From the NCBI RefSeq assembly GCF_048403405.1, contig NZ_CP183129.1: a stretch of DNA of 64,000 nucleotides. The stretch is one strand, 5' to 3'. The stretch's first letter is position 1. Every line of letters begins with the position of its first letter. Origin of the DNA: Escherichia coli (GTDB taxonomy: Bacteria; Pseudomonadota; Gammaproteobacteria; Enterobacterales; Enterobacteriaceae). A program made the position numbers and the translations under genes. Positions 366-9,200 of the stretch are shown here, one piece after another. The notes under the pieces are model-generated. The model saw nothing but the letters and a program-made list of their open reading frames with translations. It was not told the DNA's origin and searched no databases.

Positions 366-2030
<1,665 letters not shown>

Positions 2031-2048: not shown

Positions 2049-2080
2049 TGATAAAACGCTCGCTGCGTTTTATCAGGCTC
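2049..2080. terminator. Hairpin between convergent dtpD and phr (ctgataaaacgctcgctgcgttttatcag)
   Basis: Inverted repeat ctgataaaacg...cgttttatcag immediately after the dtpD stop; its far end overlaps the first codons past the phr stop. Probably a bidirectional terminator. Confidence 0.4.
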
Positions 2081-3491
2081 CTTTCCTCGCTTCTTCGTAC
2101 GCTGCCAGCGTTCGCAGCCTTGCCTCTTTGTGATCAACTATCGGTTGCGGATAATCCAGCGTCACACCTGCTTTCTGCGCCCACTTCCACGGCTCATGCA
2201 CCACTTTCCCTGGCACATCGCGCAGTTCCGGTAGCCACTGGCGGATAAACTCGCCTTCGCGGTCAAATTTCTCGCCCTGGGTTGTCGGGTTAAAAATACG
2301 AAAATACGGCGCTGCATCGGTTCCGGTTGAAGCGGCCCACTGCCAGCCACCGTTATTAGCTGCCAAATCACCATCAATCAGCTGCGACATGAAATATCGC
2401 TCGCCTTCGCGCCAGTCGATCAACAAATCTTTCACCAGAAAACTGGCTGTAATCATCCGTAGCCTGTTATGCATCCAGCCAGTGCTGTTAAGCTGACGCA
2501 TGGCAGCATCGACAATCGGGTATCCCGTTTTGCCTTCCTGCCAGACCTGTAAATGTGCGGGATTGCTCTGCCACTGCACACGATCCGTCCAGGCAATAAA
2601 CGGACAATGTTTACACAACGAGGGGTAATACGTCATCAGATGACGGTAGAACTCGCGCCAGATCAGCTCACTAAGCCAGACACTACCGGCCCCACCGTCC
2701 AGCGCCTGCGGCTGTTCCGCCAACAAGCGATGCAAACACTGGCGAGGCGATAACCCGCCCGTTGCCAGGCTGGCGGACAAACGACTGGTGCCTTCCACTG
2801 CCGGAAAATCTCGTTGTTGCTCATATTCTCCGGCACCGTTCTGGCAAAACTGGCGTAATTGCGCAATCGCCGCTTTTTCTTCCACCGGGAAATGCGCAGT
2901 ATCGAAAGGCTGACGAGGATAATTCAGCGTAATGGATGGCGCGGGATCTATCGATCCACTACTACGTACTTTTGGCGCAGCGACGCACTCCGGCATCCCT
3001 TCCCGCAGCCGTTTCAGCCAGGCGTTTTTAAATGGCGTAAAGACTTTGTACATCTCATGATTGCCAGTCATCACCGCCCCCGGCGGCAGGATCACGCTGT
3101 CGTCAAATCCTTCACACACCACGTTACGCAGCGTTCTCTCAACCTGCGCATCCCGCGCCCGCTCATTCACCTCATACTGATAGTTATAAAACAGATGGGT
3201 AACACGATTTTCCGCGCACACCTGTTTAACTATTTCGACGCTGGCAGCAAAGTCATCCACTTCATGAAACAGCAAAGGAATGCCTTTTTCCGCCAGCGCG
3301 ATTTGTAGCCTATTCAGTTGAGCATTGATAAGTTCAGCCTGACGCGGCGACACATTATGCGCCGCCCACTGGCGTGGTGTAGCGATATACAACGCCAGCA
3401 CGCGTGCAGACGAATAGCGGCAAGCGGCAGCCAGCGCGAGATTATCGTGCTGACGTAAATCCTGGCGAAACCAGACCAGATGGGTAGTCAT
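2073..3491 (-). CDS. phr: Deoxyribodipyrimidine photolyase
   Basis: 472-aa product beginning MTTHLVWFRQDLRQHDNLALAAA with the FAD-binding C-terminal region (WQWAASTGTDAAPYFRIFNP); length and sequence match E. coli photolyase. Confidence 0.95.
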   Translation of the reverse strand: MTTHLVWFRQDLRQHDNLALAAACRYSSARVLALYIATPRQWAAHNVSPRQAELINAQLNRLQIALAEKGIPLLFHEVDDFAASVEIVKQVCAENRVTHLFYNYQYEVNERARDAQVERTLRNVVCEGFDDSVILPPGAVMTGNHEMYKVFTPFKNAWLKRLREGMPECVAAPKVRSSGSIDPAPSITLNYPRQPFDTAHFPVEEKAAIAQLRQFCQNGAGEYEQQRDFPAVEGTSRLSASLATGGLSPRQCLHRLLAEQPQALDGGAGSVWLSELIWREFYRHLMTYYPSLCKHCPFIAWTDRVQWQSNPAHLQVWQEGKTGYPIVDAAMRQLNSTGWMHNRLRMITASFLVKDLLIDWREGERYFMSQLIDGDLAANNGGWQWAASTGTDAAPYFRIFNPTTQGEKFDREGEFIRQWLPELRDVPGKVVHEPWKWAQKAGVTLDYPQPIVDHKEARLRTLAAYEEARKGA

Positions 3492-3997
3492 AAAACTCCT
3501 GAATGGCGCAAGTTAATCACATGCGGCCAAAGTTCGAAATAACGCTGCCCTGAAAGCCAGGCGTCAGGATAAAGCGCCATATAGTGTTTGATACGCATCA
3601 GCGGCGCAAGAAGCGGTTGCTCGCCACGGCGATAACTGTCGATAAGCGCCGCCAGCTGCTGGCGTTCTGTGGAATCAATATGCGGGCGAAAATACCCCTG
3701 AACGTGCATCAAAACGTTGGTGTGATCGCGCGGGTTGGCGGGATGAGAAAGCAAAACAATTACGCGTTGACGGTACTGGCTGTAAAAATCATCCAGATTT
3801 TGCCACTGGTGAATATCAGCCACAAACGGGCCAAGTTTGCGGTATTCCGGCTGGGAATGCGCCAGAAAGACGAGTTTATAGCGGCTGTGATAATCGTTGA
3901 GTGCCCCGCGCGTTAAGCCATGTTCTTTCAGTCGATATAGCTCATAAATCGCGAAGATGCGGATTAGGGTGCTTTCATCAAATCGTTGCTGATTCAT
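3488..3997 (-). CDS. ybgA: DUF1722-family protein YbgA
   Basis: 169-aa ORF directly upstream of phr with a 4-nt ATGA stop/start overlap (3488..3491), the known ybgA-phr operon arrangement. Confidence 0.85.
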   Translation of the reverse strand: MNQQRFDESTLIRIFAIYELYRLKEHGLTRGALNDYHSRYKLVFLAHSQPEYRKLGPFVADIHQWQNLDDFYSQYRQRVIVLLSHPANPRDHTNVLMHVQGYFRPHIDSTERQQLAALIDSYRRGEQPLLAPLMRIKHYMALYPDAWLSGQRYFELWPHVINLRHSGVL

Positions 3998-4057: not shown

Positions 4058-4906
4058 TTAATCCTGTTGTAGCAGGACAAGATTACGAAAGCGCGCTCCC
4101 CGCAAGGACTGACGCCAGATAGTTTCTGTCCATGGCTGCCCTTTCCATTCAAACGTGAAATCAATAAGTTCATCAGGGACACCGCAAACAATATGAAGAC
4201 GGATTTCTTCTCTGCCGTGACTCTTTTCACTCATTGCGAAACTGTCATGCTCTGGATTATTTAATTCTTTCAGTGGGAATTTTTCCTCAAAGGCTTTATT
4301 AAGCCGTCCCTGATTTCCTTTTACAGCGAATAAATAATCACCGCCCTGTTTTTGTATCTTCTCTGCGATATCTTTCTGGCAACCCATCGCATCAGTTGTG
4401 ATAATTTTTCCTTTAATATCCAACATGTTAAGAAGTTCAGGGATAGCTGTGATCTCATTGGATTTCTCATCCGTCCTGATCTGTCCGATGACCAGACTGT
4501 GCATTGTTGAGAACGCACTAATGACATGAATCGCTCCCCTGCGGCGACTCTTGTCATAAGAATGCCGGAGCGTTTTTCCATCAATTGCAATAACGTCTTT
4601 ATCATCTGAAGAATGGCAGTCACGCATCCAGTTAATAAAGCACTCGTGAAATTTTGCAGGACTGATACAGGATACAACTCTGGCAATGGTATCGTGAACA
4701 GGAATACCATTTTCAAAATCACCATATTGCTTCAAAAAATCGAGATGTGTTTCCCCAAAATCCTCTATATCTTCCCAGCCTTCTGCACCAGAAATAACGG
4801 CACAAATAGTCAACAGTAGAATATCCGACAATTTATGTTCCACTTTCCAGGCTTGTCTGTAATCGGGGATAATAGAAATATGTTCCATCAATTTTTTAAG
4901 TTCCAT
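4058..4906 (-). mobile_element. ISAs1-family (H-repeat-associated) transposase, 3'-truncated
   Basis: 282-aa ORF starting [58 protein letters not shown], the conserved H-repeat/ISAs1 N-terminus. It is shorter than the ~370-aa full-length proteins and its last ~30 residues ([26 protein letters not shown]) read as non-conserved sequence past a deletion breakpoint. Confidence 0.8.
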
Positions 4907-5013
4907 TTTGTTCTCCTTAATTATGTAAAGAGTATTTGATCATGTATACGCAATAAAAAACAGCTTCAGGTAATGAGGAATATCTCAATTTTTAAACATA
5001 AAATGCGAATTAC

Positions 5014-5615
5014 TTAGTACAAAAAGTGTACTTCTGATGATCTTTCCCTGTCCTTGGCACCATCATTTTTTGACGCTTCAAAAATACTACTACAAGTGAG
5101 TTTAGAAAACTCTTTTCCAGATAATTCTCCAGGTTGTAATCCTCCGCCGCCAAAAATCCTACTCCCAGGATTTCCATACCTATTTAGAGCATATGAATAG
5201 CAATTATTTACGGCAAGATAATACGCATCTGAATTTAGTTCTCGATTGAATACTGGAGCAGGTTTATCAATTAAGCCCAGCGGATCAATAGAATAGGTTG
5301 GATGTATGGAAGCATATACATACTGATTCCACCCGCCTTCCAGCCCAATCGGTTCCTGAGTGATATACCGCCCCTGCAGCGGGTCATAATAGCGGTGGCG
5401 GTTGTAATACAGGCCGGACTCCTCATCATACTGCTGCCCCGGCAGACGGATAAGCTGCTGCAGGTGCTGCGGGTTCTCTTCAGTCAGCAGGTTGCCCCAT
5501 TCATCATATTCTGCGCACCATTCTGTTGCCCCGTCAGGGCTGATAAGCGTCAGCGGCAGGCCGCGATAGTCGCAGTGGTAGAGGTGGATTATTCGCAGTG
5601 GTAGAGGTGGATTAT
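5014..5615 (-). pseudogene. Orphan rhs C-terminal fragment (core end plus alternative C-terminal tip), no start codon
   Basis: My minus-strand translation gives an open frame [106 protein letters not shown] followed by a distinct ~85-aa tip ending ...[12 protein letters not shown] and a TAA at 5016..5014. Nucleotides ~5290..5560 are a near-copy of rhsC 6650..6930. The frame contains no Met, which is why the ORF track shows only the antisense ORF 5302..5604. Confidence 0.8.
5561..5613. repeat. Tandem direct repeat, 23-bp unit cgcagtggtagaggtggattatt x2 plus partial third copy
   Basis: Read directly: 5561..5583 and 5584..5606 are identical, followed by cgcagtg. It lies at the upstream boundary of the orphan rhs fragment and corresponds to rhsC sequence near 6908..6930. 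Confidence 0.85.
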
Positions 5616-5706
5616 TCGCAGTGATCTATATGCCAACGTCATCTTATTTTTCATCTACTCCAACGAGTAGACAAGTTTTTTATTAAACCATTTATACCTT
5701 TTACGA

Positions 5707-6210
5707 TTAAATTTTCTTATGTAATAGAGGTGAATAATCTTCCCAAAAATCCATACAAGCTTTACTTGCATAAAAGAATCCAGCGTCTGATTCATAAGAC
5801 ATAAACTGTGCAATAATAGATAGTTGTATATCTGAAAAATTAAAAACAAAATTCAAAAAATCATCGTGATCCCGATACTCAGGACATAAATATTGTTGAA
5901 TAAAATCGGATTCAAAAACCCAAAAATCATTCTTATTAAACAACGAGGCATAAATATACAGAGGGATGTAATAGCAGAATACTTTCTCAGGGAGGAATGT
6001 AATTCCTAACTCTAAAGCATAAGAGTCATCCTTTATTTTAAAATTGTTGGCTATTTCATTCCATTGTTTCTTTTGGAAAAAATTATATACAATATCCAGT
6101 TCCTCCAGCCCTGTAATATCATTTGAAATATGAGGTAATGGCTGGCATGGGAAATGAATCATAAGTTCATCATAGACTGCACTCTCGTTAGAGAAAATTA
6201 TTTTTTTCAT
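5707..6210 (-). CDS. Putative RhsC-associated immunity protein (RhsI-type)
   Basis: AT-rich ORF directly downstream of rhsC. The ATG at 6210..6208 ([20 protein letters not shown]...) overlaps the rhsC TGA (6209..6207) in an ATGA arrangement. The track start at 6228 is a TTG extension. No recognisable catalytic motifs; position is typical for an Rhs immunity gene. Confidence 0.7.
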
Positions 6211-9200
6211 TTTATTAAGCCACTGCAATCAGCTGCTGTTTTATATGCTTTATTCTCTTCTTCCATATGGGCCTTATCTCCACCACCAAAGCACTGATTA
6301 TTAATCTGCTTTCTGACCGAAGCGCACGCCAAATTTATCTCGTACCGTCTCAATATTTCTTTTCTCAGCATCTGAGGAGCGCAAGCTCTAGACTGGTTAC
6401 ATAATCTGTTTTTTTCATTTTGTAAGTCACTCAGGTTCTGGGGACTACAGTTACCACCAGGATTTACACCTGACTTATGTTCATCTGTTAATTTGTCGGC
6501 TTCTGGATTAACTTTACGGCCATATTGATCTCTGCGTTGTTGCCCACTTTGGATAACACCACCTGATGAAAATAAACCGCAACTCATCAGTGCTACAACA
6601 CTAAGAATTAACGGATTTAACCCTTGTGGGTCTATCTCTGAGATCGGATTTAACGGATACTGATAAAAATTCCATCCCCCCTTAAGCCCAATCGGATCCT
6701 GAGTGATATACCGCCCCTGCAGCGGGTCATAATAGCGGTGGCGGTTGTAATACAGGCCGGACTCCTCATCATACTGCTGACCCGGCAGGCGGATGAGCTG
6801 CTGCAGCTGATGCGGGTTCTCTTCATTCAGCAGGTTGCCCCATTCATCGTATTCTGCGTACCACGCTGTTGTCCCTTCCGTGCTGACAAGCGCCAGCGGC
6901 AGGCCGCGATGGTCGCAGTGGTACAGGTGGATTTTTCGCGCCGGCGTGTACACCGGGTCCATCTGGTTTTGCATCTGCTCCACCGTCAGGCCGCACGATG
7001 CCAGCCAGCGGCGGCTTTCCTCGCTCACCCGGTCAGTAAGGATTTCACTTTCCAGCCGGTCGAGCATCTGCACCAGCACCGGCGGGAACACCACTCTGCC
7101 ACCGTCTTCGCCGCCGGACTGCTGAAGGGCATCCGCCAGGCTGCGGCGCTGCGTTTTCGCCAGCTCACCGGTGGCGGTTTCAACTCTGATGAGTGGCGTG
7201 AAGCTCCCCGGCTGATAAACCGTCTGGATGCGGGTTCTGTCGTTCTGTATTGTGGTCAGCCGGTCGCCGTCCCAGCCGTACCAGGTCACTTCCGGTTTCC
7301 GTGACAGCGACATCCAGCCCGTCAGGTCCCGTTCACGCCGCCATACCCGTTTTGCCACCCTGCGGCCCAGCGGGTCGTAAAGATAGCGACTTTCGACCAG
7401 CGGCTCTGCATATTGTGTCCGCGTGTAGTGCACCAGCCGGTGCCGGCTGTCGTAATGATACCGGTGAGTCCGCTCATCATCCGTGCGGATAACCCCTTCC
7501 GGGATGAGGTCGGTTTTCTCTGTCAGCCTGCCGTGACGGTCATACCGGTAAAGATAGTGCGCGTCACGGGCGATACGGTTATCCGGCCACATGCTGAGGG
7601 TGCTGTCCGGGTGCAGCTCCGGGTCGGGCAGGCGGTTGCCTGCCGGGTCCGTGGCATACGGGATGCGGATATCCAGATTCGCTGCGGTGGTGTGGACGCC
7701 GGTCAGCCTGCCGGTGTCGCTGTAGCTGTAACTCCGGGTCTGGCGCGGGCTGCTGATGCGGATGAGTTCGCCGTTGTCGTTCCAGGTGTAATCGCGGTCA
7801 TACTGCAGGCTGTTCAGGTGCTGGCTCTGTAACTGCCCGGCAGAGGTGTAAGCGGTGGTGAGTTCATAACGGCCGAAGCTGCGCAGCGTTTCCCGGTGCA
7901 GGCGGTCGCGGGTGAAATCCACCAGCGGTGTGTCGCCGAGTTTCATGCCTGACAGCCAGCCGCTGCCGTAGGTCAGCCATTCCACGGCGGGCAGGCTGTC
8001 CGGTATACAGCGGTTCGCCAGTCCCTGCGCGTTGTACGCATGTCTGGTTTCATGCTGCCAGAGCAGTGCTTCCGTCTGCGGGTGATGCACCGTCTGGCGC
8101 TCACCGGTCAGGCGGCCTTTCTCATCATACCCGTAATGCACCGTCACCCGGTGGCCTTCGCTGAGATGGCTGATGCCTGTCAGCCAGCCGCGTTCGTCAT
8201 ACTGCCACTGCTCTGCAGGTTCACCCTTCACGGTGCGGTGAGTGAGGCGGTCTGCTTCGTCATAGTGCCAGTGGGTGACCAGCCCCTCATCCTCGCTGCG
8301 GATAAGTTTACCGGTCAGGTCGTGGTGATAACGCTGTGTGCGGCCGTCAAAGCCGGTTTCCTGTATCAGCCGGTCAAGTACATCGTAACGGAAGGTGGTG
8401 TGGCTGCCGTTTTCACTGGTCAGGCGGATGACCCGCCCGGCAGCATCGTATTCCATACTGCGCGTCAGACCGCCCTGCGTGGTACGAACGGGCTTTCCCC
8501 ACGCATCGTACTGTGTCCCGTTTCTGCTGCCGTCCGGGGCAATGACGGCGGTCAGGTCACCGGCGGCGTTGTATTCATACCGCGTTTCATGGCCCTGCGT
8601 GTCTTTCACCGCAATTAACTGTCCACGGCTGTCGTATGCGCGGTACTGACTCAGCCCTTCCTCGCGGTGCACCGCCGTCACCTGACCAAAACGGTCATGG
8701 TCATAACGGGTTACATAACCGGAACAGTCAGTGACGGTCAGCAACTGACCGTAACGGCTCCATGTCATGGTTTTCCGGCTGCCGGTGGCATCTTCCGTTG
8801 CGCAGGGTAAGTCACTGTGTGGATTATCATAACGGTAGCGGGTGATATCGCCGTTGTGTGCGGTTTCCTGAATCAGACGGCCGGATTCATCATATTTGCG
8901 GCGCAACTCCAGCCCGTCAGTCCCGGTGGCTGACGTTAACTGGTTGTGGTGGTTATAGTAAAATGCCGATGCCCTGCCATCCGGTGTGGTGATGCGCGTG
9001 ATGAGTCCCGTCACCACATCCGGGCTGTACTCAGTCGTCCGGCCTGCGGCATCCGTCTGTGCCTTAAGCCCGCCCACCGCGTCAAACTGACTCTGCGTGA
9101 CGCTGCCGTCCGCGTGTTCCTTTTTCACCACCCGCTTCAGCCCGCCTTCGCCCTGCGTGTGCAGCACTTCACGGCGGTCCAGACTGTCGGTGATGGTGAT

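Follow-up and report, generated by a model that had tools for sequence, protein, structure and literature searches.

Downstream of rhsC and its presumed immunity gene, the window analysed here (a 64,000-nt stretch of the Escherichia coli contig NZ_CP183129.1) carries an orphan open reading frame (ORF) that lacks a start codon and ends in a second, different C-terminal tip. This orphan is very probably a displaced rhsC C-terminal tip that was cut in half by an H-repeat (H-rpt), an insertion sequence (IS) of the ISAs1 family, and is now an ordinary dead pseudogene remnant. A first-pass annotation, made from the letters of the window, had described it as a silent cassette with an alternative toxin tip and no immunity gene, whose transfer into rhsC might be self-intoxicating. 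Comparison with the intact allele in E. coli O7:H15 sequence type 70 (ST70) dissolves this apparent paradox of a toxin without an antidote.

We used the tip region to search 5,426 complete E. coli genomes. ST70 matched at 100% identity, with the match ending after 235 of 286 nt. The matching segment sits within a full-length 'RHS element core protein', where the tip is the attached C-terminus of rhsC (locus L001, 2283..6458) and extends for 147 aa after the DPLGL motif. The window is the same as ST70 through ...GGTGCCAAGGA, and the alignment diverges beyond window position 5051. Homology to the 147-aa tip therefore ends at residue 74, which leaves no complete alternative toxin in the window. 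The first-pass annotation correctly distinguished this tip from the resident one, but only 74 of the 85 residues that it assigned to the tip are authentic; the last 11 are encoded by the IS. The retained part includes P47 and the invariant motif N23-C24-x-x-Y27-A28, whose Cys24 codon is at 5202..5200. Coordinates of all features are collected in Table 1.

From position 5050 downward, the window is H-rpt. The K-12 copies ybfL and ybfQ and two copies in strain WCHEC020032 begin matching exactly at 5050; for hundreds of unrelated genomic H-rpt copies, the match starts within 5056-5050. The ends of the element are set by a full 1290-bp copy (L005, 5711..7000) as CAGGGAAAGAT... and ...CTTGCCCTG. 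In the window, the left inverted repeat CAGGGAAAGAT occupies 5050..5040, and ...CTTGTCCTG forms the right end at 4073. With a partial transposase gene and terminal inverted repeats at both ends, the element is recognizable as an ISAs1-family IS. Compared to the 1290-bp copy, it has a 313-bp internal deletion with its junction at 4140/4139, which is the reason that the transposase is truncated. No target-site duplication was found around it, the flanks GCCAAGGA and CTACAACAGG not duplicating each other, and it is not an intact, potentially mobile copy of the kind that is bounded by such a duplication.

Relative to ST70, the window has lost ~0.8 kb (L001, 6236 to about 7030-7044), comprising the second part of the tip (residues 75-147), all of the immunity gene and most of the spacer that leads to ybgA. 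A simple IS insertion was considered and rejected, given this missing ~0.8 kb and the lack of a flanking target duplication. The lack of a duplication instead requires an insertion together with at least one adjacent deletion or rearrangement.

It has long been known that E. coli Rhs elements include H-repeats adjoining C-terminal tips (PMC3032704), and among those at the K-12 rhsC locus (ybfD, ybfL and ybfQ; PMC3032704), ybfD is the same element at the same site by ybgA. The window H-rpt and K-12 ybfD (L004, 9973..10950) have the same 313-bp deletion and the same right junction toward ybgA, indicating that the ybgA-side H-rpt copy predates the split of the window and K-12 lineages. The two differ on the left: in K-12, the end of another H-rpt (ybfL) stands in place of the first 24 nt of ybfD, whereas in the window the intact left inverted repeat is fused to the middle of the toxin domain.

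A separate observation concerns strain WCHEC020032, in which a full-length H-rpt is followed directly, at its right end, by the final 132 nt of the immunity gene lost from the window, an unannotated stub (L005, 7001..7132). The stub is present in 337 genomes with K-12-like rhsC loci and mirrors the half-toxin that the window has at the left end. The two breakpoints (L001, 6235 and 6686) lie 450 bp apart and so are not two sides of one simple insertion.

We propose that a module composed of this tip and its immunity gene (tipX-immX) would once have ended rhsC at the window locus, as it still does in ~40 complete E. coli genomes. An H-rpt/ISAs1 element would have inserted there, its intact left inverted repeat now joined to codon 74 of tipX, and the ~0.8 kb would have been lost. 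A newer module, an Ntox16-type tip with its immunity gene, would have taken the 3′ end of rhsC and left the old fragment behind it, lacking a start codon; the IS event may have come before or after the displacement of the tip. The remaining half-domain, keeping the helix of Cys24 without the beta strands, would be unable to fold into an enzyme.

To find the partner of the tip, the first-pass annotation had suggested looking at other Rhs loci, and ST70 supplied one. There, the tip is followed by a 124-aa ORF (WP_000494465.1; L001, 6443..6817) that overlaps the rhs stop by 16 nt and starts with MFTKLSIAILLAFSAYVHA/ETS, a typical Sec signal peptide. Because its position and overlap match those of an rhsI gene, WP_000494465.1 is likely the cognate immunity gene of the ST70 tip. 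The missing part of the tip and the 124-aa gene co-occur in 41 genomes (ST70 and 40 others), nearly always as the main rhsC tip. When we searched the 64-kb window by tblastn for the 124-aa protein and for the missing half of the toxin, only chance matches were obtained, and blastn likewise found no immunity ORF there. Among the 30 top-ranked genomes for this part of the window, two of which are 100% identical to it, none carries the immunity gene. The possibility raised earlier that an immunity gene had been deleted is thus borne out, the partner being present in ST70 and absent from the window.

We also looked for an intact orphan tipX-immX pair behind another tip. Two fragment-annotated candidates came up, and the one inspected proved to be an rhsC with an internal deletion. 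In strain E300010 (L006, 5398..7223), rhsC has a large internal deletion and is annotated as two pseudogene pieces, with the intact tip and its partner kept, which is another inactivation route for the same tip-immunity module.

The first-pass annotation was also accurate in placing 107 bp between the orphan stop (5014) and the ATG of the ISAs1 gene (4906). These 107 bp are IS DNA conserved in other H-rpt copies, and since they form the leader of the IS, there was never room for an immunity gene. An overlooked immunity ORF had been named as something that would overturn the first description; none of at least 30 aa lies inside this interval, and the listed ORFs merely clip its edges.

Upon re-translation of the minus strand, the orphan frame is open from 5625 to 5017, with a TAA stop at 5016..5014 and an upstream stop at 5628..5626. 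The start proposed earlier, 5615, is one base out of phase (the span is 602 nt, and codons begin at 5616 and 5613). Read literally, 5615..5014 is full of stops, but with a one-base shift the frame is real, and the description of a start-less open frame of about 200 codons stands. The frame runs from the end of an Rhs core through DPLGL (5286..5272) into 85 residues, IDKPAPVF...EVHFLY, among which the strings given in the first-pass annotation occur. It has no in-frame ATG or GTG; the sole canonical start is a TTG at codon 202, and several in-frame CTG, ATT and ATC codons are present. Identity to the rhsC core is 91% across 271-272 nt, with a longest perfect run of 83 nt, showing that the frame is not a chance ORF and agreeing with the earlier report of a second rhs core end, its DPLGL kept, downstream of rhsC and the immunity gene.

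At the exact 5′ edge of the core homology lies a perfect tandem duplication of 23 bp, which is found in loci L002 and L003 too. Its 23-bp period is not divisible by 3, which makes the first ~11 codons of the orphan frame an out-of-frame copy and not Rhs sequence. The duplication may have originated by replication slippage or may be a scar of the displacement event. Upstream of the orphan, the spacer that follows the resident immunity gene (5626..5700, minus strand) aligns loosely to the rhsC core upstream of IHLYHCD, with ...GGAGTAGATGAAAAATAAGATGAC... compared to ...GGAGCAGATGCAAAACCAGATGGAC...; it is AT-enriched and rich in stops, resembling an older stretch of core that has decayed in front of the well-preserved part.

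A displaced tip downstream of an rhs gene is what 'C-terminal displacement' classically produces (Jackson et al. 2009, PMC2935791), and the absence of initiation signals and activation by recombination are documented for rhs orphans (Koskiniemi et al. 2014, PMC3967940). The window orphan resembles such orphan tips (PMC2935791, PMC3150448, PMC3967940) in its position, its core with DPxGL, its lack of initiation signals, the attachment of the same tip to a full-length Rhs protein elsewhere and its recombinogenic repeat. It departs from them in that a canonical rhs orphan is a complete toxin-immunity pair, whereas the toxin domain in the window stops at residue 74 of 147 and no cognate immunity gene comes after it. 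With both losses, the 'reload and deploy' of the Salmonella type is unavailable in the window. Orphan toxin fragments disrupted by an IS and without immunity genes have been described for cdiA-CT orphans (Poole et al. 2011, PMC3150448); these share the interruption by a mobile element and the lack of an immunity gene, but they belong to contact-dependent growth inhibition (CDI) loci, and the window to an Rhs locus.

To describe what the window has lost, we turned to the family and predicted structure of the intact tip. A word-indexed protein search gave just 5 relatives, whereas an exhaustive search of cluster representatives reached 825 at E<=0.001, with the domain usually at protein C-termini. 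An alignment of 40 sequences from diverse homologues has invariant positions N23, C24, Y27, A28, P47, H104, R107, G112 and K117, and nearly invariant positions D102, W105, D109, W114, S115, C60 and C80. The AlphaFold2 model of the 147-aa tip is confident (predicted local distance difference test 91.7; predicted template modelling score 0.86), with helices at 10-13, 16-21, 24-29 and 60-69 and strands at 84-92, 102-108, 114-117, 123-127 and 138-146. In the model, Cys24 opens a helix and His104 lies on a strand, a papain-type arrangement in which the conserved Cys and His are placed as in such hydrolases.

The window tip lacks His104, Arg107, Gly112 and Lys117 (4 of the 9 invariant residues) together with all five strands, and keeps the helical lobe with Cys24. 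Having lost the strands and these residues, the half-tip cannot form the domain and is presumably inactive. This loss also removes the ground for a self-intoxicating swap.

Two readings of the orphan as a toxin can be weighed against this. In the first, the orphan would be a complete alternative toxin that has lost its immunity gene and would, if swapped into rhsC, poison the cell or its siblings. A frame open to its stop, a length of 85 aa within the size range of small Rhs tips, the lack of an immunity gene after it and an 83-nt perfect repeat that permits recombination all agree with this reading, yet the full domain is 147 aa long, the homology breaks at residue 74 exactly where the IS inverted repeat begins, and the four invariant residues and the whole beta sheet are missing; we therefore consider it extremely unlikely.

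No part of the orphan other than the core repeat could serve as a substrate for homologous recombination with rhsC. Between the 271-nt repeats, RecA-type recombination is possible, and homologous recombination between core repeats has been demonstrated for a Salmonella orphan (PMC3967940). A deletion recombinant would lose the Ntox16 tip and its immunity gene and gain the half-domain with its IS-encoded tail. Most likely, such a swap would disarm the cell and leave it open to the toxin of its parents and kin, and not self-poisoned; the cost of losing one's own immunity gene on a swap has been discussed for CDI orphans (PMC3150448). Using a synthetic chimeric query, we found no genome among the 5,426 that reads rhsC-specific core into the tip/IS junction, as the 40 long matches all end at the breakpoint and are the intact allele. 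The absence of recombinants speaks against a complete toxin, although it is also expected if recombinants are merely unfit.

In the second reading as a toxin, an internal promoter and a non-canonical start codon would allow expression of the orphan as a toxin-antitoxin-like module. There is precedent in Salmonella Typhimurium, where expression of an Rhs-CT orphan is driven by internal P2 promoters and a CTG start; P2-like sequences have been reported in E. coli (PMC7043789), and the window orphan has the in-frame CTG, ATT and ATC codons noted above. We found no sigma-70-like site in the orphan core, however, the region scoring fewer matches than shuffled sequence. In addition, ATG and GTG starts and an antitoxin partner are absent, and the product would be truncated. 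Immunity partners in this family have signal peptides or membrane segments, suggesting an envelope target beyond the reach of a cytoplasmic product. An expressed module of this kind is thus highly improbable. The Salmonella promoters and CTG start mean that absolute silence of the window orphan is not proven, but any product would be a truncated fragment.

The first-pass annotation had also allowed that the tip might not be a toxin, in which case no immunity gene would be needed. In line with this, searches of Pfam, NCBIfam and PDB sequences with the full tip and with the family profile returned nothing usable, and a literature search found no experimental data for the tip family. Two candidates from the sequence searches, a rice beta-glucosidase (E=0.017) and an autolysin (E=0.78), were not usable. 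A few family members match DUF7689 weakly, and a search of the literature for DUF7689 found nothing. The contexts of the domain argue the other way: it directly follows DPxGL on full-length Rhs proteins, both of E. coli and of distant bacteria, and it occurs in orphan arrays beside known toxin and immunity families. Of 20 long homologues, 11 have RHS repeats at E<=0.1 and 6 at E<=0.001. In two metagenomic contexts, the domain forms the end of an Rhs protein or an orphan, with a small ORF for a membrane or signal-peptide protein after it; in all, a small overlapping or adjacent envelope-targeted ORF follows the domain in three contexts. The invariant Cys and His on a fold that distantly resembles papain-type hydrolases point in the same direction, and we judge a non-toxic tip to be very unlikely.

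One of the metagenomic contigs (L007, 1..7977; Joint Genome Institute) is a long array of Rhs orphan fragments. A fragment with this tip family is followed there by a 154-aa multi-pass membrane ORF and adjoins orphans with GH-E and Tox-HDC tips and Imm44 and SUFU-type immunity genes.

Foldseek searches with the tip model gave no significant match in the PDB and 116 matches at E<=0.001 in AFDB50, nearly all of them uncharacterised. Papain-fold cell-wall effectors of the type VI secretion system (the Tse1/Tae family, Tae3 and TseH, with periplasmic immunity proteins) are among the structural hits of the model, and the intact tip is like them in its modelled Cys at a helix start and His on a strand and in its partner with a signal peptide. 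Among the AlphaFold DB relatives, at template modelling scores of about 0.7-0.8 and 20-32% identity, are numerous uncharacterised proteins of bacteria, bacterial Rhs proteins and lipoproteins, a single 'amidase domain-containing protein', 'insoluble matrix shell protein 1' of corals and molluscs, and proteins of viral metagenomes, including those of giant viruses. As a fold family, they appear to be widespread and unstudied.

From the model and the signal peptide of the partner, a Cys-His hydrolase-type toxin that acts in the cell envelope is a plausible identity for the intact tip, with hydrolase chemistry and a periplasmic site of action as the predicted properties. It is possible, and we suggest it tentatively, that the intact tip (NNCYSYA...DYHWYRQD...K) represents an uncharacterised, very widespread Cys-His family of Rhs toxins directed to the envelope or periplasm, of which the window would hold a fossil half-copy. 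The orphan remains a dead remnant even if the intact tip heads a new toxin family.

A dead remnant might still have been kept for use, as a landing pad for re-acquiring an intact module or as a regulatory or decoy sequence. The architecture of the window is present in ~242 of the 5,426 genomes, and the tip part of the orphan has no substitutions compared to the intact allele. Undecayed identity fits recent common ancestry equally well, however; conservation is the only hint of function, and RefSeq treats the frame as a pseudogene. Retention for a useful role is accordingly very improbable, and we favor an inert, truncated tip.

The first 12 kb of the window are the E. coli rhsC locus in reverse orientation, as seen from the ORF list, and the gene order is that of K-12, with the main rhs gene between ybfA/kdp and ybgA; ybfA and kdpFA lie beyond rhsC, on the far side from the orphan. 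The resident rhsC tip (6207..6650) matches Pfam Ntox16 (PF15523, E=1.6e-12) and has a hydrophobic stretch before the match. Its presumed immunity protein, which would be 173 aa long if started at TTG 6228, corresponds to WP_000720081.1 in RefSeq (identical locus L002); an NCBIfam search with the 167-aa form gave no match. The 2.3 kb surrounding the orphan are 100% identical in E. coli strains 4621 and MS 69-1. RefSeq labels the identical stretch as 'RHS element core protein', 'hypothetical protein' and then two pseudogenes, 'RHS repeat-associated core domain-containing protein, missing N-terminus' and 'ybfD ISAs1 family transposase, missing C-terminus'.

Table 1. Features of the rhsC locus in the window, in window positions; L-numbers are the compared loci cited in the text
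Feature	Position	Strand	Evidence or remark
Whole start-less orphan frame, 203 codons plus stop	5014..5625	minus	Re-translation; RefSeq pseudogene equivalent to 5601..5014 (L002, L003)
Perfect 23-bp tandem duplication, 2.3 copies of ATAATCCACCTCTACCACTGCGA (minus-strand reading)	5570..5623		Tandem Repeats Finder: period 23, 100% matches
Core-homology part of orphan (IHLYHCD...)	5326..5596	minus	91% identity to rhsC 6939..6669
Authentic tip, residues 1-74 of 147	5051..5271	minus	100% nucleotide identity to ST70 rhsC tip
IS-derived tail: third base of codon D74, 11 codons, TAA stop	5014..5050	minus	H-rpt homology
H-rpt/ISAs1-family element, 978 bp, K-12 ybfD orthologue	4073..5050	minus	BLAST against K-12 (L004) and L005
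107-bp 'gap', 5′ leader of IS	4907..5013	minus	Inside 5050..4140 block, 94% identical to K-12 ybfL H-rpt
Truncated ISAs1 transposase ORF, 282 aa	4058..4906	minus	NCBIfam NF033564 transpos_ISAs1, E=5.6e-88, profile 1-229/314; RefSeq pseudogene ybfD
Presumed immunity gene of resident tip, 167 aa from start in Prokaryotic Genome Annotation Pipeline (PGAP)	5707..6210	minus	Overlaps rhsC stop
Main rhsC, 1383 aa	6207..10358	minus	N-terminal and YD-repeat core to ...DPQGL, then resident C-terminal tip
ybgA	3997..3488		ORF list
phr	3491..2073		ORF list
dtpD	549..2030		ORF list

A remnant of this kind is already known and understood, and the finding carries little weight for biology and some for annotation. 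When a toxin orphan appears without an immunity gene, truncation should be checked first against an attached copy in another strain. The mildly novel by-product is a large unannotated Cys-His family with a signal-peptide partner, for which WP_000494465.1 is the probable immunity protein of a toxin domain that profile libraries miss. For the rhsC locus itself, the H-rpt erodes old toxin-immunity modules, leaving half a toxin in the ~242 genomes with the window architecture and the 132-nt immunity-gene stub in 337 others.
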